DNA from: an uncultured Deferribacteres bacterium
Lineage (GTDB): Bacteria > Zhuqueibacterota > Zhuqueibacteria > Zhuqueibacterales > Geothermadaptataceae
Length of the DNA stretch: 17,683 nt
Assembly (NCBI GenBank): GCA_964014485.1
Contig: CAXHAT010000163.1
Location: forward strand, 1 to 17,683
Reading direction: 5' to 3'
Below the pieces are notes generated by a model, which had not been told where the DNA came from, did not search any database, and worked only from the letters and a program-made list of their open reading frames with translations. Within the stretch, counting starts at the first letter, position 1, and each line of letters opens with the position of its first letter. The translations under genes were made by a program, and so were the position numbers. Positions 231 to 12,593 of the stretch are shown one piece after another.

Positions 231-3200
231 ATGACAAAGGCAGGCCAAAGACTTCAACAAGAATTGCAAAAACGTATCCTCGTATTCGACGGTGCAATGG
301 GGACGATGATTCAACGTTACAATCTTGGAGAAAACGATTTTCGCGGCGAACGTTTTAGGGATTTCCCGCATGATTTAAAAGGCGCGAATGACCTGCTTTC
401 CATCACACAACCCAAAGTTATCGAAGAAATCCACCGCGATTTTTTACAAGCGGGCGCGGATATTGTCGAAACAAACACTTTTAACGCGACTTCGATTGCG
501 CTGGCGGATTACCGTCTCGAGAAACATGTTTATGAAATCAACGTTGCGGCCGCTCGAGTAGCGCGCAATGCAGCAAAGGCTGTTAGTTCAGAAACGCCAG
601 ACAAACCGCGCTTTGTTGCAGGTTCCATTGGACCTCTCAATCGCTCGCTTTCGATTTCGCCGGACGTGAATGATCCCGGCTTTCGCGCCGTCACCTTCGA
701 TGAAGTGAAAAACGCCTACGCCGAACAGGTCGCCGGGCTGATCGACGGCGGCGTGGATATTTTATTGGTCGAAACGATTTTTGATACGCTCAACAGCAAG
801 GCGGCGCTGTTTGCGATTCAGGAATACTTTGAAAAGCACAAAACCGCATTGCCGATCATGGTCTCAGGCACGGTCGTTGATCTTAGCGGACGGACGCTCT
901 CCGGCCAAACGCCGCACGCCTTTTGGCTTTCTACCAAACACGTTAAAAACCTTTTTAGCATTGGTTTGAATTGCGCCCTGGGTTCGGCGCAAATGCGTCC
1001 GTTCATTGAAGAAATCGCGCGCGTAGCTGAAGTGCCGGTGAGTTTGTATCCAAACGCCGGGCTCCCGAATGAATTCGGCGGCTATGATGAAACGCCGGAA
1101 TTCATGGCCGCGCAAATGGAAGATTATTGCCAGAGCGGATTTCTCAATATGCTCGGCGGCTGCTGCGGTACAACGCCGGAGCACATCGCCGCCTTTGCCG
1201 AAATCGCCGCCAAGTATCCGCCGCGACAATTGCCGGAGAAAAAGCCTTTTCTGATGTTGAGCGGTCTGGAGCCGGTCGTGATTACGCCAGAAACCAATTT
1301 CGTCAACATCGGCGAGCGCACAAATGTGGCGGGGTCGCGTAAATTCGCCCGTCTGATTCTCAACGGCGAGTACGAAGAAGCGCTTTCCATAGCTGCGCAA
1401 CAGGTTGAAAACGGCGCCCAGATCATTGATGTCAACATGGACGAAGGCATGCTCGATTCCGAAGCCGCCATGGTGAAATTTCTCAATCTCATCGGCGCAG
1501 AGCCGGACATCGCGCGCGTGCCGATTATGCTCGATTCGTCGAAATGGTCGGTGCTCGAAGCGGGACTCAAGTGCATTCAGGGCAAAGGCGTCGTCAATTC
1601 GATCAGCCTGAAAGACGGCGAACAAGCATTTGTCGAGCGTGCGAAAACGATTCTCAGATACGGGGCCGCCGTCATCGTGATGGCATTCGACGAGAGAGGG
1701 CAGGCGGACACGTACGAACGCCGCATTGAAATCTGCGAACGCGCCTATCAAATCCTGACTCAGCAAGTCGGTTTTCCGCCGCAAGACATTATTTTTGATC
1801 CGAATATTTTGACTGTTGCAACGGGCATTGAAGAGCACAATAATTACGCCGTTGATTTTATCGAAACGACGTGCTGGATCAAGGAAAACCTGCCGTTGGC
1901 GAGCGTGAGCGGCGGCGTCAGCAACATTTCGTTTTCATTTCGCGGCAATAACAAAGTGCGCGAGGCGATGCACTCGGCGTTTCTCTATCACGCGATCAAG
2001 GCCGGGCTGGATATGGGGATTGTCAACGCCGGGCAGCTTGAAGTTTATGCGGAAATTCCGGAAGATTTGCTGGAGCGCGTCGAAGACGTTTTACTCAATC
2101 GTCGAGAGGACGCCACGGAACGCTTGGTAGATTTTGCCGAGCAGGTCAAAAATGATGGCGGGCGATCTCAAAAGGTGCAAAACGAGTGGCGCAATACTTC
2201 GGTCGAAGAGCGTTTAAAGCACGCTTTGGTGAAAGGCATTGTTGAATTTATTGACGAAGACACTGAAGAAGCACGACAAAAATATGACCGCCCGATTTCC
2301 GTGATCGAGGGGCCGCTGATGGACGGTATGAACGTGGTCGGCGACCTCTTTGGCTCCGGTAAAATGTTCCTGCCGCAGGTCGTGAAAAGCGCACGGGTGA
2401 TGAAAAAATCCGTCGCTTATCTCACGCCATTTATTGAAGCGGAAAAAGCCAATTCACCGCAAAAAGGCGCTCGCGCCAAAATACTCATGGCGACGGTCAA
2501 AGGCGACGTTCACGATATTGGCAAAAACATCGTCGGCGTGGTGTTGGCATGCAATAATTATGAAGTGATTGATCTTGGCGTGATGGTTCCGGCGAACAAA
2601 ATTATGCAAGCGGCGCGCGACCACAACGTCGACGTCATCGGATTGAGCGGTTTAATTACGCCCTCGCTCGATGAAATGGTGCATGTCGCGAAAGAGTTAC
2701 AGCACGACGGTTTCAATCTGCCGCTGCTCATCGGCGGCGCAACGACGTCGCGCATCCACACCGCCGTCAAAATCGCACCCAATTATGCTCAACCGACGGT
2801 TCACGTTCTGGACGCTTCGCGCAGTGTGACGGTGGTGAATCGCTTGATTACGCCGGAGCAAAAAGACGCGTTTGTGGAAGAAGTGCGGCAGGAATACGCT
2901 GACTTGCGCGACGGGCACGCGCGGAAACAACAGAAAAAAGTTTACCTGTCCATTTCTGAAGCGCGCAAAAATCGCATGCAAATTGATTGGAAAAACACGC
3001 CGATCAGCAAGCCGAAAAAGCTCGGCTTAACCGAATTCAAAAACTTCCCGCTCGCCGAAATTCGCGAATATATTGACTGGACGCCGTTTTTTATCACTTG
3101 GGAAATGAAGGGCAAATTCCCGGAAATTCTCGAATCGCCGGAAGCGGGCGAAGAAGCGCGGAAACTTTACGACGACGCAAACGCGCTGCTTGATCAAATC

Positions 3201-3980
3201 ATTGCTGAAAATTGGCTGACCGCCAATGGCGTCGCCGGTTTGTTTCCGGCAAATGCTGTCGGCGATGACATTGAAATTTACACGGACGACTCACGACAGG
3301 AAGTTTTGACCGTTTTGCATACGCTGCGCCAGCAGGCAGAGAAGCGCAAGGGCGAACCTAATCGCGCGCTGGCGGATTTTGTCGCACCTAAAGAATCAGG
3401 GTTTGCGGATTACATTGGCGGCTTTGCCGTCACCGCCGGGTTGAACATTGAAGAGCACGTCAAACACTTTGAAGCGGCGCACGACGATTACAACAGCATC
3501 ATACTGAAAGCGCTGGCGGATCGTCTTGCCGAAGCTTTCGCCGAATTGCTGCACGAAAAAGTGCGCAAGGAACTTTGGGGCTACGCCGCGGACGAAAATC
3601 TTTCCAATGAAGCGCTCGTTCGTGAAAAATATCGCGGCATACGCCCGGCGCCGGGGTATCCTGCGCAACCCGATCATACCGAAAAACCGATTTTGTTCGA
3701 ACTGCTCGGCGCAAAATCTGTGACCGGCATTCAATTAACCCAAAACCTCGCCATGTGGCCAGCCGCTTCCGTCTGTGGAATCTATTTCGCGCATCCGGAA
3801 GCAAAATATTTTGGCTTAGGAAAAATAGAGCGTGATCAGTTGCAGGATTATGCAGCGCGCAAAAATGTTTCTGTAGAAGAAATGGCAAAATGGTTGTCTT
3901 CGAATTTGATTGAAACTAACCTAAATTCGAAGACGGGGCCTGCAGGCAACAGAAAGCAAAAAGAACTTGAAGCTATATGA
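231..3980 (+). CDS. metH: Cobalamin-dependent methionine synthase
   Basis: 1249 aa. DGAMGTMIQ start, Zn ligands NCALG and GGCCGT, pterin domain [14 protein letters not shown]12 motif [18 protein letters not shown], activation domain [16 protein letters not shown] upstream. Confidence 0.99.
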
Positions 3981-4030: not shown

Positions 4031-4065
4031 TTGACATTTTGAGAATATGCAAGGAAAAATTCTCA
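4031..4065 (+). promoter_or_regulatory. Putative TA promoter with operator-like inverted repeat
   Basis: Perfect TTGACA at 4031-4036 (the -10 match is weak). TGAGAAT (4040-4046)-N12-ATTCTCA (4059-4065) inverted repeat lies over the promoter and start region. Confidence 0.4.
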
Positions 4066-4334
4066 TGAAAACATTAAAGCTTCAACAGACCGTGAAAAAA
4101 GACGGTGAAGTTGAGGTCTCAGGCTTGCCATATAAAAAGGGACAGCTTCTAGAAATCATTTTATCACCCCACGCAGCACAAGAGAAGCGTTCAGTACTTA
4201 CGGTAGGACAGTTTCGAAAATCAGGGTTGATCGGTGCGTGGAAGGATCGCACGGATATTCCAGACAGTTCAGCCTATTCCCGGGAGCTGAGAGAAACGGT
4301 GCAGCGCCGGAGGCGGCATGATTTTTCTGGATAG
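4065..4334 (+). CDS. Putative antitoxin of a VapBC-type module
   Basis: Small ORF overlapping a PIN gene by 17 nt. Beta-rich N-terminus (TVKKDGEVEVSGLPYKKGQLLEIIL) and C-terminal 'LIGAWKDRTDI.DS..Y.RELR' typical of PIN-associated antitoxins. ATG 4065 follows AAGGA; 4047 is an alternative start. Confidence 0.75.
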   Translation: MKTLKLQQTVKKDGEVEVSGLPYKKGQLLEIILSPHAAQEKRSVLTVGQFRKSGLIGAWKDRTDIPDSSAYSRELRETVQRRRRHDFSG

Positions 4335-4704
4335 TGACGTCATGATAGACCTTTTTCGTGAATATCCGACAGCCATGGAGTGGTTTGATACAATTGAAGC
4401 TGAAGAAACCATGGCCCTGTCGGGATTTGTCGTCATGGAATTAATTCAGGGGTGTAAAAACAAAACTCAACTTCAGAAATTACAGCGCAATCTGGCTGTC
4501 TTCGAAACTGTCTGGCTGGAATCAGGTGATAGTGAACGAGCATTGGAATTATTTGCCCGGCACTATCTCAGTCATAACGCCGGTTTGATTGACGTCCTGA
4601 TAGGAATGACGGCGGTATCACTTGGAGTCCCGCTTTACACCTTCAATGAAAAACACTATCAATTTATCCCAGGTCTGAAAACTATCCAGCCGTATGAGCG
4701 GTAG
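4318..4704 (+). CDS. vapC: PIN-domain ribonuclease toxin (VapC family)
   Basis: 128 aa with PIN signature residues: IFLDSDVMID, VVMELIQG, IDVLIGMTA, LYTFNEKHY. Confidence 0.92.
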   Translation: MIFLDSDVMIDLFREYPTAMEWFDTIEAEETMALSGFVVMELIQGCKNKTQLQKLQRNLAVFETVWLESGDSERALELFARHYLSHNAGLIDVLIGMTAVSLGVPLYTFNEKHYQFIPGLKTIQPYER

Positions 4705-4727: not shown

Positions 4728-5234
4728 TTAAACGTCATCCAACACAAGCTGCATGAGGACAATATCCTGCCACTTGCCGTTTTTGAAGCCAATCTCCTTT
4801 TGCCTGCCGACGATCTCATAACCAAATTTTTTATTGTATTGAATGCTGATTTCGTTGTCCGCGAAGATTTTGGCGTTGAGATGATGGTAGCCAAACTTCT
4901 TGCAACGCTCAATGAGTGCGGTTTTAATTTGCGTGCCCAGTCCCCGCGTCACCAGGTTGCGGCGCAGATAAACTGACGTTTCACAAGCGAAACGATAACC
5001 CAAGCGGTCGCTGTATTTTTTGATAATCCCCCATCCCAAAACCTGCTCGTCGTCTTCCAGAATCAGAATTGTTTCCCGATCTGAAAAATTTCCGACTTGG
5101 CGACGTACGTCTTCTTCTGTTTTCAATTCGTCGTCCATCGTGCAATCGCCAATGGCGATGGACTCGTTATAAATTTCGGCGATGACGGCGGCGTCATCTA
5201 ACGTGCAATCGCGAATTTGGGGCTGTGATTTCAT
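4728..5234 (-). CDS. GNAT N-acyltransferase, phosphinothricin/methionine-sulfoximine acetyltransferase (Pat/MnaT/YncA)-like
   Basis: IAEIYNESI, YRFACETSVYL, acyl-CoA loop TRGLGT, N..SI..KKFGY..VG...EIGFKNGKWQD..LMQL. AAGGAG RBS. Confidence 0.88.
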   Translation of the reverse strand: MKSQPQIRDCTLDDAAVIAEIYNESIAIGDCTMDDELKTEEDVRRQVGNFSDRETILILEDDEQVLGWGIIKKYSDRLGYRFACETSVYLRRNLVTRGLGTQIKTALIERCKKFGYHHLNAKIFADNEISIQYNKKFGYEIVGRQKEIGFKNGKWQDIVLMQLVLDDV

Positions 5235-5263
5235 TTTATTGCTCCTTTAAATTCAAAAAATCG

Positions 5264-5330
5264 GTTCAGAATAGACTCGTCTGAATTTGGACAGAAAAGA
5301 GCTTGACTGCCTTGTGTTCAAAATAGACTC
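5264..5330. repeat. Two 15-bp direct repeats, GTTCA(G/A)AATAGACTC, 52 bp apart
   Basis: 5264-5278 and 5316-5330, 14/15 identical. Confidence 0.6.
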
Positions 5331-5367
5331 CCCCAGAATGACATGCTGGCGGTTTTGTTTCAGAGGT

Positions 5368-6924
5368 TTACTTTCTTCTTAACAAATGTCCCGGTTTATG
5401 AGTATACAAATCGCCCTTTTCCAGCATTAGCGTTCCGTTGACCCAAACGTACTCCGTACCTTCGCTAAATTGTCGCGGGTTGGCGATGGTCGCTTTTTCT
5501 TGTACGTTTTCAGGATCGAGCAAGACAAGATCGGCGTAATGGCCTTCCTGAATTTTTCCGCGCCCGGTCAGGCGCAAAAAGTTGGCGGGGATTGAAGTGA
5601 TTTTGCGAACGGCGTGACCGAACGGAATCTTTTCTTCACGCAAAGCCCAACGTTCCAGAAATCGACTGAACGCGCCAAACGTGCGCGGGTGCGGATGCCC
5701 GATCGTGGTCTCGGCGTTGACCGGGTAGCTCCAGGAGTCGCTGCAAATATTCGAATTTTCCCACATCACCGCCGCGTCGACGTCGTCGTCGGACATGCAT
5801 TTGTAGACAATCCACGCCATCGGGTCGGCGATGAGAATATCGACTGCCAAGTCCGCCGGTTCGCGGTTTTGTTCTCGCGCAAGTTCAAGAATCGTCTTTC
5901 CCTGCGCGCCCGGAATACTGTCCGTCACCATCCACATTGTCTCAAAGCCCGTCTGTCGATTTAAAAACCAGTCGACGCACTTTTTTCGCCATTCGTCCTG
6001 GCGCAACAAATCCGGCAGAGCGTCAAAGCCGTGCTGAATCGCGTCTTTGGGCACAAACGTGCTCAATTTTGTCGAAGCGGCGGCGTAGGGATAAACTTCA
6101 AACGTCACTTGTTGTCCGCGCTCTCGCGCTTCTTCAATCAAACGAATCGCTTTTGGCACATCGCCCCAGTACGGTTTTTCCCCGGCTTTTAGATGACTCA
6201 CCAGAACCGGCAAGTTCGCCGCCCGGCCAATTTCAATCGCTTCCGCGACGGCTTCCAAAAGCGCCTCGCGTTCGTTGCGAATATGGCTGGCGTACATCCC
6301 GCCGTGTTTGGCAACAATTTTCGCCAGACGAATCACCTCCGCCGTATCGGCAAAGCTGCCTGGCGCGTAGACAAGCCCGGTGGTCATGCCGAGCACGCCG
6401 TCGCGCATCGCGGTTTCCACCATCGCGCCGAGCTGATCCAATTCTTCCGGTTGAATGTCGCTGTAATTTTTGCAGGCCCCGGCGCGCATCGTATTATGCC
6501 CGGCGTAAGTACCAAAATTAAACGGCAGACCATAAGCTTCAACTTGCGCGAACCATTCGCCCATCGTACGCCATGAAAAATCGAAACCAATCTGCTCGCC
6601 AAGCTTCTCCATTTCCGAAACAAACAAATCGCCGATTGGGGCCGATGAAACGCCGCAATTGCCGATGATTTCCGTAGTCACGCCCTGGAAAAGCTTATGA
6701 TCGGCGGCGTGCGGTCGCATGTAGCCAAAGCCGGTGGAAGCGTGCGTATCGATAAACCCCGGACAAAGAAAAAGCCCCGTCCCGTCAATGACGCGCTTTG
6801 CTGCTGAGTTGGTTAATTCGTCGCCGACATGCACGATGCGCTCGCCTTCAACACCGACGGTCAAGCGCTGCGGTTCAATGGAAACGCCGTCAAAGACGGT
6901 CGCATTTTTTATGATAAAATCCAC
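5368..6924 (-). CDS. N-acyl-D-amino-acid deacylase (D-aminoacylase), amidohydrolase superfamily
   Basis: CPGFIDTH, QGVTTEIIGNCG, GLVYAPG, YASHIRNE, VSHLK, YPYAAAST, CSDS, HPHPRTFGAF, GRGKIQEGHYADLV, YVWVNG. GTG at 6924 has an AGGA RBS; the ORF can extend to ATG 6966. Confidence 0.92.
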   Translation of the reverse strand: MDFIIKNATVFDGVSIEPQRLTVGVEGERIVHVGDELTNSAAKRVIDGTGLFLCPGFIDTHASTGFGYMRPHAADHKLFQGVTTEIIGNCGVSSAPIGDLFVSEMEKLGEQIGFDFSWRTMGEWFAQVEAYGLPFNFGTYAGHNTMRAGACKNYSDIQPEELDQLGAMVETAMRDGVLGMTTGLVYAPGSFADTAEVIRLAKIVAKHGGMYASHIRNEREALLEAVAEAIEIGRAANLPVLVSHLKAGEKPYWGDVPKAIRLIEEARERGQQVTFEVYPYAAASTKLSTFVPKDAIQHGFDALPDLLRQDEWRKKCVDWFLNRQTGFETMWMVTDSIPGAQGKTILELAREQNREPADLAVDILIADPMAWIVYKCMSDDDVDAAVMWENSNICSDSWSYPVNAETTIGHPHPRTFGAFSRFLERWALREEKIPFGHAVRKITSIPANFLRLTGRGKIQEGHYADLVLLDPENVQEKATIANPRQFSEGTEYVWVNGTLMLEKGDLYTHKPGHLLRRK

Positions 6925-7035
6925 TTGAATCCTATTCTTTAAAATTGCAGTGTCCTCAAATGTCATTCAGGAGGAATCTATTTTCCGGACCCTTGAAGCA
7001 GGCTCATAACTCTCACTGAGCGACACACCCGAGGC

Positions 7036-8178
7036 TTATTTTTTCATCATTTCTATTTTGTTCTCGGCAAAATCTCTAAGCGCTTCTTCGTCAATTTCCA
7101 CAGGTTTGGAATCGTCAAGACGGACAAAACCATCCGAATCCATTCTAATAGGTTCAGCGATGACGTCTCTGGCAAAATAGCGGCTGGAAGGGCTTAGATC
7201 ATGCGCTTGAGCATTCGGCAAGCACGAAGCGACGCGCAAATTTGCGGTGCGTCCAATCCCGGTTTCAAACATGCCGCCCACCCAGGCGGGAATCTTGTGT
7301 TCCCGGCAATAATCCAGGATTTTTAAAGTTTCCAACTGCCCGCCGACGCGTCCCGGTTTAATGTTCACCTCATCCAATGCATCGAGACGGTGCGCGACAA
7401 TGAGGTCGCCGAAGGAAGCGACGCTTTCATCCAGGCAGATTGTTAGATTCCGCGCTTGTGATTTCAGCAGATTGTTCAAGTGAAAATCTCGCGGCGCAAA
7501 AGGCTGCTCCAGCATGACGGGCGCAAGCTCGGCCAGTTTTGCAAAGAAAGCGACGTCGTTTTCGACGCCGGAACCGTTTGCGTCAAAGCCAAGCGCGATT
7601 TGGGGGAATTCATGGCGTACGGCGATGAGCGTTTCGACGTTCATCTTTGGAAAAACTTTGAATTTGAATCGCCGATAACCGTCGCGCACCGCATTTTCTA
7701 CACGCTTGACGGCCTCGGCGGGCGTTTCAAACAAACCCAGAGAAATCCCGACGGGGATCTTTTTTATTCGCTTGCCTTGCCACAATTCAAGCGCGTCGGG
7801 TTCCGACTTTCTTCGCAAAAGATCGAAAGCCGCGTCCAAAAGTGCGGCGGTCGTGAACGGCCAGTTGCGAGTTTTTTGGATTGCTTTTTCGAACTCCTGA
7901 ATCGTTCCTTCTACAGGCAGAAGCGGAAAGACGTGATTTTTTAGAACTTCGACGGCTCCGGCAAGAAATTCGCCGTTGAAGTAAGGATCGGGGCGGCAGG
8001 AACATTCGCCGATCCCCCAATTTCCTTCATCATCGACCCAGCGAATATACAGCGCGCGGCGTTCGTTGCGCACGCCGATGGCGGACTTGAAAGCCTCAAC
8101 TTGCGGGATCGCCGCTTCGATGAGTTCGATTTTTTTTACCGAAACGCGTTTAGTTAAAATCGTTTCAAGGGTCTTCAT
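7036..8178 (-). CDS. Enolase-superfamily N-succinyl/N-acylamino acid racemase / o-succinylbenzoate synthase (NSAR/OSBS, MenC-like)
   Basis: Catalytic KxK (FKFKV), metal ligands DAN, EQP and LDES, second Lys in NIKPGRVGG, WVGGMFETGIGR, DLSPSSRY. Start set at ATG 8178, which overlaps the upstream stop (ATGA). Confidence 0.88.
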   Translation of the reverse strand: MKTLETILTKRVSVKKIELIEAAIPQVEAFKSAIGVRNERRALYIRWVDDEGNWGIGECSCRPDPYFNGEFLAGAVEVLKNHVFPLLPVEGTIQEFEKAIQKTRNWPFTTAALLDAAFDLLRRKSEPDALELWQGKRIKKIPVGISLGLFETPAEAVKRVENAVRDGYRRFKFKVFPKMNVETLIAVRHEFPQIALGFDANGSGVENDVAFFAKLAELAPVMLEQPFAPRDFHLNNLLKSQARNLTICLDESVASFGDLIVAHRLDALDEVNIKPGRVGGQLETLKILDYCREHKIPAWVGGMFETGIGRTANLRVASCLPNAQAHDLSPSSRYFARDVIAEPIRMDSDGFVRLDDSKPVEIDEEALRDFAENKIEMMKK

Positions 8179-9215
8179 CGCAGAATAAATCCATTTTTCA
8201 ACGGATCGTCGGGATCGATCCAAAACTCACATTTTCCCGTAATAAACGCACGGCCTTCAACTTCGGGAACGACGGCTTTGTGCGGGCCAAACTCGATTTC
8301 TTTCATGACTTTGCCGGTAAAACTGCTGCCGATGATGCTCTCAATTTCGATTTTTTCGTTGAGGCCGATTTCGCCGCGAGCATGGTGAATCGCCGTGCGT
8401 GCACTCACGCCAGTACCGGTCGGACTGCGGTCAACTTCTCCCTCGGCAAAAATGCAAACATTGCGGCTGTGCGCTTGCGGCGATTCCGCCGGGCCGATGA
8501 AAATTGTGCCGTAGAGAAAGCCCAGGTCTGCTTCAAAAGGGTGCTCGATTTTTCGCGTCGCCATAATCGCGCGCTTTATTTTCATACCTCGCTCGATCAA
8601 CCGCTGGAAACCTTCCGGCGCGCACTTCACGTCCGCATCTTCAGCTCTTACAAATGCATAGAAGGCGCCGCCGTACGCTAAATCATAGCGCACATTTCCC
8701 AAACCAGGAACTTCGACAACTTCGTCTAAAGCATCGACATAGGACGGGACATTTTGAAAAGCCACGCTTGCAACACGACCGTTCTTGATCTTCGCAAACG
8801 CCGTGACGAGACCCGCGGGGCTGTCAATCCGCACTTTAACGACAGGGGCGTCGGTCTGGATTATGCCAGTTTCGAGCACGACGGTCGTCACGGCGATAAT
8901 GCCGTGCCCGCACATCGAGCTGTAGCCTTCGTTGTGGGTAAAAAGTACGCCGAAATGCGCATTTTTCGAAACAGGCGGCGTGACGATGCAGCCGTACATG
9001 TCGGCGTGACCGCGCGGCTCCCACATGAGCGCGGTTCGCAAGTGATCGTAATGGGTAATGGCCTCGCGTCGCTTCTCCAGAATGGTTTTACCGTTGAACT
9101 TCGGGTAACCGCCGAGAATAACGCGCAAAGGTTCGCCGCCAGTGTGCGCGTCGATCACAGTAATTTTATCCCAGTTTTCCGGAGGTCGCCAGTTCAGACC
9201 GGTTTGAATGTTCAT
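8175..9215 (-). CDS. Proline racemase family protein with Cys/Thr catalytic pair, probable trans-3-hydroxy-L-proline dehydratase
   Basis: DAHTGGEPLR, EPRGHADMYG, HNEGYSSMCGH, GGAFYA, and DRSPTGTG (Thr instead of the Cys in DRSPCGTG). ATG 9215 preferred over TTG 9248. Confidence 0.85.
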   Translation of the reverse strand: MNIQTGLNWRPPENWDKITVIDAHTGGEPLRVILGGYPKFNGKTILEKRREAITHYDHLRTALMWEPRGHADMYGCIVTPPVSKNAHFGVLFTHNEGYSSMCGHGIIAVTTVVLETGIIQTDAPVVKVRIDSPAGLVTAFAKIKNGRVASVAFQNVPSYVDALDEVVEVPGLGNVRYDLAYGGAFYAFVRAEDADVKCAPEGFQRLIERGMKIKRAIMATRKIEHPFEADLGFLYGTIFIGPAESPQAHSRNVCIFAEGEVDRSPTGTGVSARTAIHHARGEIGLNEKIEIESIIGSSFTGKVMKEIEFGPHKAVVPEVEGRAFITGKCEFWIDPDDPLKNGFILR

Positions 9216-9280
9216 TTTTTTAGCTGATTTGTACAGGGCATGTTCCAAAACATGGGATCTGAATGACAGGCATACCGCAT

Positions 9281-9308
9281 GTAGGGGTTCAAAATCTTGA
9301 ACCCCTAC
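9281..9308. repeat. GTAG-type REP-like palindrome, copy 1
   Basis: GTAGGGGTTCAA-AATC-TTGAACCCCTAC; exact reverse complement of 15115-15142. Confidence 0.85.
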
Positions 9309-9346
9309 AACACGCTTTGCAATTTTTGTGTTTTAGACATCTCTAC

Positions 9347-10078
9347 CTAAACATGTGAATCCAAAAAATACGGCAGCATCTGTCGCCAGGTCGGCCAATC
9401 GTGGGCCATGTCATGCCCCCAAAGGTCGAGGGTGTGGGAAATGTTTTTGCTGTTAAGAATTTCGGAAAAATGTTGTGACGCTTCCGGCTTTTCATAATTG
9501 CCCTGACCGCTGGCGATGATGATGGTCTTGTCGGTGCGCAATTGGTTCAACAGATCTTCATCGTCAAGCCCGGGCATGTAGTCCGCCGGTGAATTGAAGT
9601 AGCAATTATCGTCGTAGTAACCGTTGGTGTAATCTTTCAGATTGTAACTGCCGCTCATACCGATGACGCCCTTAAAAATATCCGGGCGCTTGAAAAACAT
9701 GTTCACGGAATGCAGCGCGCCCAGAGACGCACCGGTGATCACAATCGGGGTCAAGCCTTGGCAATGATTGTGGATAAACGGCACGACTTCTTCAAAAACG
9801 TAGTCATTAAATTGCATGTGCCGAACCGCTTTGTCCGCCGGATTCATCTGGTCATTCAGCCAGCTCTCGCTGTTGATGCTGTTGATGGAGAACGCTTTGC
9901 ATTTGCCGCTGTTGATCGCTCCGGAAATCGCGTCGATGAGGTGAAAACGCTCGTACTCAAGGAAATCCGCCGCTGCGGTCGGCAGCATGAGGAGAGCGAA
10001 ACCGTAATGCCCGTAAACCGCCACTTCCATATCTTTGTTCAGCCTCGGACTCCACCATTTGTGAATTTCTCTATGCAC
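9347..10078 (-). CDS. Alpha/beta-hydrolase-fold esterase
   Basis: 243 aa. Nucleophile elbow GASLG, C-terminal HDWPTW His, N-terminal WWSPRL..DM..VYGHYG typical of the putative esterase family. GTG start with GGAG RBS. Confidence 0.85.
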   Translation of the reverse strand: MHREIHKWWSPRLNKDMEVAVYGHYGFALLMLPTAAADFLEYERFHLIDAISGAINSGKCKAFSINSINSESWLNDQMNPADKAVRHMQFNDYVFEEVVPFIHNHCQGLTPIVITGASLGALHSVNMFFKRPDIFKGVIGMSGSYNLKDYTNGYYDDNCYFNSPADYMPGLDDEDLLNQLRTDKTIIIASGQGNYEKPEASQHFSEILNSKNISHTLDLWGHDMAHDWPTWRQMLPYFLDSHV

Positions 10079-10097
10079 AGATTTCTCCAGAATAAGA

Positions 10098-12593
10098 TTA
10101 CTCGACTAAAATCATTTTTCGGCTTTCTACGAATCGTTGCCCTGTACTCGAAGTGAGAACGAGCCGATACAAATATGCGCCTGAAGCAAGCAAACGCCCC
10201 TTTGAATCGCGACTGTCCCAATCGACTTCATAAGCGCCGGCGCGCTCGTAATTGTTTTCAAACGTGCGGACAAGCTTGCCGAGAATGTCGAAAATTTCAA
10301 GCGTTGCGCGACCAGCCGCAGGAAGGTCAAAAGCAATGGTTGTGTTTGGGTTGAACGGGTTGGGAAAATTTTGGTGAAGCGCAAAAACCGTCGGCAGACT
10401 TGGAGTTTTATCATCAACTCCAGTCGTCGCGTCTTCAAAGAAATCCAATACGCGCGCCATCACATCGTTTCGCGCCGATTCAGGATAAATGGTCTCGAAA
10501 GGAACAGAGAGATGCACCAGTTTTCCCGGCGCTTTGCCGTTTGGAAAAATGCCATTGAAGGACACGCCCGCCCCGCCGGAAGCAATGCCGACGTCCAGGT
10601 ATTTTAGACAGACAACCCCGCCTTGCGCGCCCTGGATTGCGTCCGGCCAGTCCACGTCGAACGTACCCTGCGAGCCGTCGTCAAAATCGAAGTCTTCCAA
10701 GCCATCGAAGAGTTCGTCGGCGACGGGTTCGGCAGTGTAATAAAGTCCGCGATTATTGTTGGGCGCGTCCGCGATGTAATTCGCTTTTAAAAAGTTGTGA
10801 TAGAACGCTGCATCGGAGGCGGAACCGCGCGCTTGCAAATCCCAGCCAATTTCAGCGCCGGAAACAAAGAGCTTGCCGCCGTTTTGTAAAAAAGCTTCGA
10901 CGCTGTCTTGCTCAATCGGATTGAATGTTTCGTCCGCTGTGCTTTCGTCGCCCAAAATCCAGTCGATCATCGTAAAATCAGTCAAAGCCAAACGCCCTCG
11001 AGAAACGGCCTCATTGCTTGCGGAAGAAAAAGCGAAACCCCTGTTTTGAATCGCATGGGCATGCTGCCTGATATAATCGAAGCGGTTGTTTGTCCCAGTC
11101 GTCCGGTCAAAACCGTGAACGATGAGAAGCCGGTGGGAATTGGCGCTTGGTACGCCGGCGAGGGTTTCGGTTTGCTGCGAAAGCCCCGTTGAATTGACGG
11201 CTCGCAAGCGCAGGAAATAGAGTTTTTCCGGTTCAAGGTTATGCAGCACGGCATTGTTTGAAGCGACAAAAACCGAGTCTTCAAATTCGAGCCCATTGTC
11301 GCTCAAGTAGACAAAATAGCCTGAAGCGCGTCGCGCCGGTTCAAACTGGATGCGCAAGGCGTTCTCGTTTTCATTCAAAACGCGAAACGAGAGCGGCGTG
11401 TCCGGGACCGGTATTTCGCCGCTGCCGAATTCCTGGTCGAGCAAACTCCAAAGCTCCTGACGATTGCCGTCATAGCCGAGCGCCCACATGCCGACGCCCT
11501 TGTAGCCCTTGATTTTTGCCAGGTTGTACTTCATCGCCAGACTCGAATCGTTGTCAAACCAAACCTGGTTCCAGTGCGAACCGTCGTCCCAGCGATACCA
11601 GGGCGTTTGGGAAGCGGTTTCCCATTGCTGGCCGTAGGTGAGTGCGCCGGACATGGCCGAATCAAAAAAACGCGCGCCAATAAAATCCGTGACGGAAGAC
11701 CGCGCGCCCGATGACGTCGTTTTCCAGTGATGTCCGTAGTAAGGAACGCCAAGAATCAGCTTTTCGGGCATGTTCTGAGTGACTTGCGAAAACTGCACGT
11801 TGACTGTGTTTGAGATATTTACCGCGCCGCCGATCAGCGGTGCGTTCGGCCCTGAAGTTGAGCTCCAACTGCCGTGAAAAGCGTAGCCCATGATGAACAA
11901 ATAATCGCAGCTTTGCGCCAAGCCGAGATAGTCCCAAGTGTCGCCCCAATTCACGGCGGGAGCGTCAAAACTGACTTCCGAGCCGGGGACTTCACGGTGC
12001 ATGTACTCGGTCAACTCCGCCATAAACCCGTTGATCCGCCAATGCCATCCCGAAGAATTGCTTCCCTCAAAATCAATGTTGATTCCGTCCGCCGTCCCTT
12101 CCAACATTTTGTTTTTAATGTTCTCAAAAAAGCGCTGTTTGTTCTGCTCGCTAGTGATGAGCGTGTTGATATCGGTCGGATCAAAAAGCGTGGCGGTGAG
12201 AATAACTTTGACGCCCTTGGCGTGCGCTTCGTTGATCAAATTGTTCCAGGGCCAGCCGTGATCATTGCCGAGCGTGCCGTTTGCGTTGACCTCGACGGCA
12301 AAGGCGGCGACATGCGTCAAAAGGTCGAAATTCAAAAACTCGCTGGTGCTCCAGTAAGGTAAAAATCCAAAAACGGTTGCATCCAGGCGCGCCGCTTTTG
12401 CAAGGCGGGGTTGCAGAGGCAGGATCCGCGCGTCTCTATCACCGACGAGGTCAGGTGAAACTGGCGTATTTTTGTGCCTTTCCATCTCAAAGGCGTGCAT
12501 GCTGCTATAAAATTCTTGCGATAACGCGAAAGGCAGGCTGGTTAGGAGAAGAAAGCAAAATGCGGCAACGCGCCGGACGATCTGAGCGGTCAT
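10098..12593 (-). CDS. Secreted GH18 glycoside hydrolase (chitinase/chitobiase-like) with FnIII, an uncharacterised alpha/beta domain and a C-terminal FlgD-Ig/T9SS-type sorting domain
   Basis: Signal peptide ending ALS|Q. GH18 motifs DGINIDFEG, FIMGYAF, KLILGVPYYG, GVGMWALGYD. FnIII-like ASGYFVY..LEPEKLYFLRLRAVN. Tail FALHQNFPNPFNPNTTI...IFDILGKLV...WD.RD..G..LASGAYLYRL...RKMILVE. Confidence 0.9.
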   Translation of the reverse strand: MTAQIVRRVAAFCFLLLTSLPFALSQEFYSSMHAFEMERHKNTPVSPDLVGDRDARILPLQPRLAKAARLDATVFGFLPYWSTSEFLNFDLLTHVAAFAVEVNANGTLGNDHGWPWNNLINEAHAKGVKVILTATLFDPTDINTLITSEQNKQRFFENIKNKMLEGTADGINIDFEGSNSSGWHWRINGFMAELTEYMHREVPGSEVSFDAPAVNWGDTWDYLGLAQSCDYLFIMGYAFHGSWSSTSGPNAPLIGGAVNISNTVNVQFSQVTQNMPEKLILGVPYYGHHWKTTSSGARSSVTDFIGARFFDSAMSGALTYGQQWETASQTPWYRWDDGSHWNQVWFDNDSSLAMKYNLAKIKGYKGVGMWALGYDGNRQELWSLLDQEFGSGEIPVPDTPLSFRVLNENENALRIQFEPARRASGYFVYLSDNGLEFEDSVFVASNNAVLHNLEPEKLYFLRLRAVNSTGLSQQTETLAGVPSANSHRLLIVHGFDRTTGTNNRFDYIRQHAHAIQNRGFAFSSASNEAVSRGRLALTDFTMIDWILGDESTADETFNPIEQDSVEAFLQNGGKLFVSGAEIGWDLQARGSASDAAFYHNFLKANYIADAPNNNRGLYYTAEPVADELFDGLEDFDFDDGSQGTFDVDWPDAIQGAQGGVVCLKYLDVGIASGGAGVSFNGIFPNGKAPGKLVHLSVPFETIYPESARNDVMARVLDFFEDATTGVDDKTPSLPTVFALHQNFPNPFNPNTTIAFDLPAAGRATLEIFDILGKLVRTFENNYERAGAYEVDWDSRDSKGRLLASGAYLYRLVLTSSTGQRFVESRKMILVE

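Follow-up and report, generated by a model that had tools for sequence, protein, structure and literature searches.

Can a bacterium turn an L-amino acid into its D form by acylating it, racemising the acyl derivative and then releasing one enantiomer only? The question is raised by a contig of 17,683 nucleotides (nt) from an uncultured Deferribacteres bacterium (CAXHAT010000163.1, assembly GCA_964014485.1), which was analysed over its whole length and is called the window here. An earlier note on this DNA had recognised three adjacent co-oriented genes, for a racemase, a D-aminoacylase and a Pat/MnaT-like acyltransferase, between positions 4728 and 8178, and we found them exactly there (OSBS stands for o-succinylbenzoate synthase):

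4728..5234, minus strand: GNAT acyltransferase, Pat/ArsN1/MnaT-like, 168 amino acids (Pfam Acetyltransf_4 and PDB relatives)
5368..6966, minus strand: amidohydrolase of the D-aminoacylase family, 532 amino acids (matches to PDB 9g5m and 1m7j)
7036..8178, minus strand: enolase-superfamily enzyme of the NSAR/OSBS subfamily, 380 amino acids, predicted N-acylamino-acid racemase (TIGR01928)

Here, we propose that this trio is one copy of a cassette that has spread horizontally, and whose usual order is racemase, D-deacylase, GNAT and thiol dioxygenase. The cassette may invert an L-amino acid to the D form via its N-acyl derivative in an acyl-CoA-driven manner, a reading to which we give a probability of about one half. 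The new element would be a natural cassette that joins an NSAR-type racemase, a D-acylase, a GNAT and usually a thiol dioxygenase, the acylate-racemise-hydrolyse logic being already known.

Conservation of the cassette across species

A protein search of 5.8 billion sequences returned many orthologues of the enolase with 45-59% identity, 30 of which were aligned to make a scan pattern. Scanning one genome per species yielded 178 pattern matches, 164 of them encoding a relative. The best 80 of these 164 loci were examined and classified by tblastn with the window proteins:

enolase, amidohydrolase and GNAT on one strand and in the same order: 62 of 80 loci
enolase, amidohydrolase and a CDO-like gene, without GNAT: 2 of 80 loci
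enolase and amidohydrolase only: 1 of 80 loci
enolase alone despite available sequence: 5 of 80 loci
locus ended by a contig edge: 10 of 80 loci

Since gene order and strand recur in 62 of the 80 loci, all from other species, the linkage of the trio is far beyond chance, and the check for co-conservation suggested in the earlier note thus turned out in favour of the trio. Among the 70 informative loci, the amidohydrolase comes next after the enolase in 65. When loci truncated by a contig end are set aside, 65 contain the amidohydrolase and 62 of these also contain GNAT, whose orthologues stand directly after the deacylase in 62 loci. Clustering of the open reading frames (ORFs) over the loci revealed one more recurrent gene of the cysteine dioxygenase (CDO) family, located directly past GNAT; this CDO-like gene follows GNAT in 47 of the 55 trio loci that extend at least 900 nt beyond it. 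The median gaps within the cassette are 10, 1 and 35 nt when starts are placed at the first start codon, while racemase and deacylase are separated by 69 nt, and deacylase and GNAT by 133 nt, in the window.

The cassette is carried by Calditrichia, Acidobacteriota, Rhodothermales, many Bacteroidota (including cultured Kordia isolates, Saprospiraceae, Cyclobacteriaceae and Chitinophagales), Gammaproteobacteria (Thiohalocapsa) and UBP7. Kordia algicida OT-1 (NZ_CP142125.1, locus L040), for example, has the racemase gene at 7992-9137, the deacylase gene at 9131-10702, the GNAT gene at 10704-11204 and the dioxygenase gene at 11241-11981. Its four proteins co-diverge, the pairwise-identity matrices of 39 loci being correlated with r 0.89-0.96, as is expected from common descent as well as from moving as one unit.

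The remaining recurrent neighbours, a Na/H exchanger, an ORF of ~472 amino acids and a histidine kinase/LytTR pair, were each seen in at most 9 loci and in a single lineage. The ~472-amino-acid ORF, which has no Pfam match, overlaps the start codon of the racemase gene in 8 loci (L039:3262-4680 and seven others, from Cyclobacteriaceae/Roseivirgaceae). Methionine had been put forward earlier as a substrate on account of the nearby metH. This link was rejected: metH lies within ~8 kb in 0 of the 80 loci, and neither a metH nor a cystathionine-synthase homologue was found in them.

The four predicted enzymes

The window enolase narrowly passes TIGR01928, the model for NSAR/OSBS-type menC (223.5 bits; cut-off 200.65). 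It also contains Pfam MR_MLE_C. Its top PDB relatives are 1wue, 1wuf and the N-acylamino acid racemase of Amycolatopsis, 1sja (E 3e-46). In the numbering of the alignment, K171 and K173 (KxK), D198, E223, D249, K273 and R276 are the same in 30/30 orthologues; the KxK motif aligns with K161 and K163 of 1sja, and the remaining catalytic residues align likewise. R276, three residues past the second catalytic Lys, is the equivalent of R266 of the Amycolatopsis enzyme, a specificity determinant that is tied to racemase activity together with the second Lys, according to the passages of PMC12006748 used here. When compared with the DgcA model NF042940, the enolase stays far under the cut-off (63.9 bits against 400). 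Moreover, a loop specific to the clade, ECSCRPDP, places an invariant Arg at the position of Met50 of 1sja, a residue that presumably lines the side-chain pocket. We therefore predict that the window enolase is an N-acylamino-acid racemase of the NSAR/OSBS subfamily.

The deacylase is matched in the PDB by the D-aminoacylases 9g5m (E 1.7e-71) and 1m7j (E 1.7e-66), and a profile of 30 orthologues reaches E 3e-99; further solved relatives are a GlcNAc-acid de-N-acetylase and an N-acyl-D-glutamate deacylase. Cys104, His228, His258 and Asp410 are kept in 61/61 orthologues and align with Cys91, His216, His246 and Asp362 of 9g5m, which makes Cys104 the bridging cysteine, His228 and His258 the tight metal site and Asp410 the catalytic aspartate. 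The carboxylate site (Tyr292, Pro293, Ser298, Arg428) and the acyl site (Tyr200, Asp410) are also present in 61/61 sequences, and Tyr294 of the Tyr-Pro-Tyr motif in 60/61. The roles of the carboxylate-site, acyl-site and metal-site residues in solved D-acylases are taken from section 3.5 of PMC12149444, and the family is described as markedly D-stereospecific in the passages of that paper used here. The invariance of the residues that hold the alpha-carboxylate and the acyl group argues for a D geometry as in the solved D-acylases. In addition, three basic residues close to the hinge, at the entrance of the mobile domain, are conserved (K300, R302 and K307).

The window GNAT scores 65.7 bits with Pfam Acetyltransf_4 (cut-off 24.3), and its 14 PDB matches comprise phosphinothricin acetyltransferases (9igk, 4jxq), YncA (3dr6) and uncharacterised or generically named acetyltransferases. 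By these Pfam and PDB matches it belongs to one GNAT subfamily with Pat, ArsN1 and MnaT (YncA). MnaT acts on L-methionine. There is a difference from PpArsN1: read from motif spacing rather than from a computed alignment, Arg75, one of its two gating arginines, is Ser in 53/55 GNAT orthologues, and the equivalents of Arg77, Tyr80 and Tyr89 are kept in 53/55, 55/55 and 51/55, respectively. The nearest characterised relatives acetylate L-amino acids. In the passages of PMC6465285 used here, Pat and ArsN1 act on amino acids whose side chain is a sulfoximine, a phosphinate or an arsinate, and take their L-enantiomers only; crystals of ArsN1 contain the L-enantiomer and L-phosphinothricin (L-PPT). 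The window protein is thus a predicted L-amino-acid N-acyltransferase.

The CDO-like proteins score 34-38 bits with Pfam CDO_I (cut-off 23), and 47/47 of them have counterparts of the mammalian CDO residues Tyr58, Arg60, His86, His88, His140, His155 and Tyr157; we take these to form the 3-His iron site and the His-Tyr pair and, in the case of Arg60, to bind the carboxylate. An AlphaFold model (pLDDT 92.5) has the Cys-bound CDO of B. subtilis as its best match, ranks 1-49 among the 50 matches listed are thiol dioxygenases, and the target TM is 0.75-0.79 for 4qm9 and 3eqe, with a cupin fold. The fold, the 3-His site, the His-Tyr pair and the Arg are common to mammalian CDO and B. subtilis YubC/CdoA; in the fold search, the identity to solved CDOs was 16-21%. 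Unlike CDO, the CDO-like protein has an extra helical C-terminal domain of ~50-140 residues and sits in a racemase/deacylase operon. The family is rare, being found in 3 of 401 sampled Bacteroidota genomes, and our literature searches returned no paper linking cysteine dioxygenase with NSAR or D-acylase. Among its relatives in the ESM Atlas are proteins in which CDO_I is fused to a methyltransferase or to rhodanese.

A dioxygenase of this Arg type implies, as far as its residues can tell, a cysteine-derived substrate. Given that the metH adjacency is not conserved, cysteine or cysteine sulfinate is more likely the substrate than methionine. A sulfinate side chain is anionic, and the basic residues found in the loop of the racemase and near the hinge of the deacylase would be suited to it.

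Direction of the proposed pathway and competing explanations

How does the cassette compare with systems already known? The D-to-L route of the Geobacillus kaustophilus type (Sakai et al. 2006) consists of a GNAT succinyltransferase, an NSAR/OSBS and an M20 L-desuccinylase, as summarised in the passage of bioRxiv 2022.03.03.481873 used here. Both systems follow the same logic, namely acylation by acyl-CoA, racemisation by an NSAR/OSBS and irreversible hydrolysis of one enantiomer, and their racemases fall under one subfamily model, TIGR01928. Unlike this route, the cassette has a 168-amino-acid Pat-like GNAT and an amidohydrolase of the D-aminoacylase family, its predicted direction is the opposite one, and a thiol dioxygenase is added.

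Two plasmid operons, taken to represent the characterised pathway from their annotation and from the same bioRxiv passage, served for comparison. That of Lysinibacillus fusiformis encodes M20, GNAT (274 amino acids) and menC, and that of the Streptomyces plasmid NZ_CP108083.1 (L131, 356-5107) encodes an amidohydrolase, M20, GNAT (289 amino acids) and menC. Their M20 and long GNAT proteins gave matches in 0 of 81 loci (the window and the 80 loci; tblastn, E 1e-5), and in BLASTP the GNATs of the window and of Lysinibacillus showed no similarity (E 1.1). The racemases share 31-36% identity with the menC of these operons in the best tblastn matches listed. The flanking enzymes therefore differ from those of the known D-to-L pathway, as had been supposed before, and both are replaced by families whose characterised members show the opposite handedness. 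In the Streptomyces plasmid operon, the upstream amidohydrolase (525 amino acids, same strand) is 28% identical to the window deacylase, so that an NSAR stands beside a D-acylase-like gene in actinomycetes too, there together with an L-specific hydrolase.

DgcN-DgcA is a second relative in logic, since N-acylation is followed by an enolase-superfamily racemase acting on the N-acyl amino acid (N-acetyl for DgcA, the 'N-acetyl-D-Glu racemase DgcA' of NF042940). Unlike the cassette, it is specific for glutamate and runs from D to L, as stated for D-glutamate in the passages of PMC10845958 used here. A further parallel is man-made. In the industrial 'amidohydrolase process', outlined in PMC12149444, NSAR and D-acylase are coupled in a dynamic kinetic resolution of N-acetyl-DL-amino acids; the two enzyme families are identical to those of the cassette, and pure D-amino acid is the product, as predicted for the cassette. 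The industrial enzymes come from unrelated organisms and are fed chemically acylated substrates, whereas in the cassette the two genes are natural neighbours and stand with that of an acyltransferase, from which the substrate would come.

Overall, the family-level stereochemistry of the GNAT and of the hydrolase favours the L-to-D direction. In the proposed pathway, the Pat-like GNAT would use acyl-CoA to form an N-acyl-L-amino acid. The NSAR-type enzyme, with its two lysines and by way of an enolate stabilised by Mg, would then interconvert the N-acyl-L and N-acyl-D forms. The D-aminoacylase-type hydrolase would deacylate the D form only, giving a one-way flux in which each molecule costs one thioester. 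The dioxygenase could act at either end: L-cysteine would be oxidised to L-cysteine sulfinate before inversion, or D-cysteine would be made first and oxidised afterwards, the end product being D-cysteine sulfinate in both orders. In this more specific form, the cassette would be a natural one-way route, independent of pyridoxal phosphate (PLP), from L-cysteine to D-cysteine sulfinate (or D-cysteine), driven by O2 and one acyl-CoA per molecule. We hold this specific reading only tentatively, and it is possible rather than probable.

Several observations weigh against inversion from L to D. Concerning the deacylase, the HxH of the second metal site reads H75-A-S77, with Ser for the second His in 61/61 sequences (A76 in 60/61), so that the clade of the window deacylase lacks one alpha-site His where KleDacyl has His62/His64. 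Lai and co-workers reportedly found in 2004 that the Cys/His/His site alone is needed for activity. The mobile alpha/beta domain (~303-347) could not be aligned to solved D-acylases, even by profile, and the side-chain determinants Arg295 of the Bordetella enzyme and Leu298 of the Alcaligenes enzyme could consequently not be placed on the window deacylase; it is this domain that sets side-chain specificity in solved D-acylases. Moreover, the window deacylase deviates at 15 of 140 near-invariant positions (those at least 95% conserved among the other orthologues), the most among the 61 sequences (median 1). Its changes include T106V, S195T, A262G, N266Y, K269D, R302S, H389K and P419E, and spare every catalytic and ligand-anchoring residue.

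Concerning the GNAT, it lies, unlike Pat and ArsN1, under all NCBIfam equivalog cut-offs (ArsN1a 117 of 170 bits, ArsN1b 91 of 210, PAT 62 of 300), and by these scores it is not a member of the ArsN1a, ArsN1b or PAT resistance families. D-amino-acid-acylating GNATs exist, such as the succinyltransferase of the known pathway, and family membership is a weak guide to handedness.

Concerning the dioxygenase, 8 of the 55 cassettes are without an adjacent gene for it. Five of these eight exceptions carry a CDO-like orthologue elsewhere in the genome (43-52% identity), and in the other three genomes no such orthologue was found with the query used. The window genome resembles the five, its CDO-like gene lying on another contig than the trio (G000:C289:5777-6784, locus L102); the neighbours of the unlinked dioxygenase genes have nothing in common. 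One of the three sampled Bacteroidota genomes with the family has the dioxygenase and no deacylase orthologue. Given that the dioxygenase is unlinked and the deacylase unusually diverged here, the local substrate may differ. Furthermore, ORF clustering over the 80 loci found no conserved D-amino-acid-using gene, transporter or regulator beside the cassette. Our full-text searches returned no natural NSAR plus D-acylase operon. The statement of the earlier note that the L-to-D direction has no natural description agrees with these literature searches, which did not cover key subscription papers on NSAR genome contexts.

We considered five other explanations. The first retains the inversion from L to D and makes it a detoxification: a toxic L-amino-acid analogue would be disarmed by acylation and then released as a harmless D form, from which cellular L-acylases could not regenerate the toxin. 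Candidate toxins are glutamine-synthetase inhibitors of the phosphinothricin, methionine sulfoximine and arsinothricin kind, as well as excess cysteine or cysteine sulfinate. By the ArsN1a, ArsN1b and PAT scores and by the PDB matches, the named families closest to the GNAT are resistance acetyltransferases, these enzymes act on L-enantiomers only (PMC6465285), and the cassette is self-contained, patchy and horizontally acquired here, like many resistance modules. Yet all three scores are under their cut-offs, acetylation by itself is enough in known resistance systems, so that the other enzymes would need a separate reason, and the thiol dioxygenase has no evident role unless the toxin is a thiol. 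We regard detoxification as doubtful.

It is unlikely that the cassette is a D-to-L salvage system built from non-orthologous parts, in which the GNAT acylates the D form and the amidohydrolase clade has turned L-specific. The only two described natural acylation-dependent inversions run from D to L, as far as the cited parts of bioRxiv 2022.03.03.481873 and PMC10845958 go, and the altered metal site and unalignable mobile domain of the deacylase clade would suit such a change. Both handednesses would, however, need reversal, since the characterised members of the GNAT's family take L-substrates (PMC6465285), and the residues that fix the alpha-carboxylate and acyl groups in D-acylase structures are invariant in the deacylase.

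Racemase and deacylase might instead serve to scavenge N-acyl-D-amino acids or L-Xaa-D-Xaa peptides from outside the cell, a task to which GNAT and dioxygenase would be unrelated. The two loci with racemase, deacylase and dioxygenase and no GNAT, and the one with racemase and deacylase only, would be explained in this way, and the cited passages of PMC12149444 state no physiological role for D-acylases. What makes scavenging improbable is that GNAT is present in nearly all uncut deacylase loci and co-diverges with its partners, that no conserved transporter or D-amino-acid catabolic gene lies nearby, and that no N-terminal signal peptide is apparent in the window trio proteins, whose sequences were read by eye.

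A fourth possibility, which would yield no D-amino acid, is a PLP-independent desulfination. The dioxygenase would supply cysteine sulfinate and the GNAT would acylate it. The enolase enzyme would abstract the alpha-proton of N-acyl-cysteine sulfinate and release sulfite, in an elimination comparable to the dehydration by OSBS, leaving N-acyl-dehydroalanine, which the amidohydrolase would split into the acid, ammonia and pyruvate. Ordinary transamination already degrades cysteine sulfinate, which counts against a need for this route; the route is also our own idea, with no known precedent. It has a role for all four conserved enzymes, and the invariant Arg at the Met50 position and K300, R302 and K307 would suit an anionic side chain. 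Moreover, the ancestral NSAR/OSBS reaction is itself a beta-elimination and starts from this enolate intermediate (PMC12006748, passages used here). Desulfination is nevertheless very improbable, as two residues tied to racemase activity, the second catalytic Lys and the equivalent of R266, are invariant.

The last explanation is that the enolase is a plain menaquinone OSBS with neighbours by chance. TIGR01928 bears the name o-succinylbenzoate synthase, and public records label the orthologues so. The check for a separate men or mqn pathway advised earlier found that MenD and MenB pass their cut-offs, while no MqnA was found in this genome at 97% completeness; the genome therefore needs an OSBS. 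None of the 15 ORFs scanned in the window is a men gene, in line with the earlier note. Among the six enolase-superfamily proteins of the genome is a second NSAR/OSBS, encoded on contig C39 (G000:C39:15905-17206, locus L103:7906-9207), with a better TIGR01928 score (339 bits). This paralogue is 48% identical to the Lysinibacillus 'menC' and has orthologues of 50-71% identity in 19/19 relatives' loci examined. It adjoins a gene for an Xaa-Pro-dipeptidase-like amidohydrolase and an M24 peptidase gene, neighbours that are not kept in relatives, and it is probably the real MenC.

The trio, by comparison, has no orthologues in 40 relatives, where the best match of the window enolase has 35% identity, and these comparisons indicate that it is a horizontally acquired extra in this genome. 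It should be noted that the counts of relatives (40, 19/19 and 11/20, the last given below) include the unpublished genome G016, and the 40 also G023; their removal changes no conclusion. Because the C39 paralogue is vertically inherited and conserved, and the window enolase has no orthologue in relatives, the latter is not the menaquinone OSBS, a distinction that had been drawn before and holds. With linkage recurring across phyla as well, a plain OSBS can hardly be the answer.

Surroundings of the trio and implications

The other features of the window are as follows:

231-3980, plus strand: metH
4047-4704, plus strand: vapB-like ORF (no family match) overlapping a PIN-domain VapC-like ORF
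8175..9248, minus strand: proline-racemase-superfamily gene, Cys/Thr type (Pfam Pro_racemase E 9e-113)
9347-10078, minus strand: putative esterase
10098-12593, minus strand: large GH18 protein with FN3, a FlgD-Ig-like domain and a type IX secretion system (T9SS) sorting tail

The vapBC-like pair stands between metH and the GNAT gene and here fills the slot held by the thiol-dioxygenase gene in most other cassettes; its VapC-like ORF scores 47.4 bits for the PIN domain and 42 bits with NF047959, the latter under cut-off. On the other side, the TGA stop of the proline-racemase-like gene overlaps the ATG of the racemase (ATGA, 8175-8178), a translational coupling seen in this genome only. The protein scores 381 bits with NF045511 (cut-off 540) and has Cys (SSMCGHG) and Thr (DRSPTGTG) at the catalytic positions, which we take to be the mark of trans-3-hydroxy-L-proline dehydratases. 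As orthologues with 61-69% identity occur in 11/20 relatives, including relatives that have no trio, this gene is, unlike the trio, native to the lineage and vertically inherited. It was not counted as part of the cassette, since none of the 80 loci has it and the juxtaposition is local. The earlier inventory of genes was thus right about the trio and had overlooked both this gene and the fourth partner of the cassette, which lies outside the window.

The esterase and GH18 genes were likewise rejected as parts of the cassette, their linkage to it not being kept elsewhere. The esterase gene starts 19 nt after the GH18 gene, and a Kordia esterase resembles the window esterase in the nucleophile-elbow region only.

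NSAR and D-aminoacylase have been paired in industry for decades, and the 2025 D-acylase study and survey (PMC12149444) gives, in the passages used here, no natural joint role for them. Since cultured Kordia strains carry the cassette, the inversion proposed here is directly testable. If it is true, nature uses the industrial NSAR/D-acylase trick in a mirror image of the described NSAR pathway, running in the opposite direction, and a D-aminoacylase would have its first physiological role. The co-evolved enzymes would also offer a ready set for the manufacture of D-amino acids. For the bacteria themselves, the cassette would add a way of producing D-amino acids that is independent of PLP racemases, would tie D-amino acids to sulfur metabolism through the thiol dioxygenase, and would reveal that marine and sediment bacteria have a previously unrecognised supply of sulfur amino acids in the D configuration.

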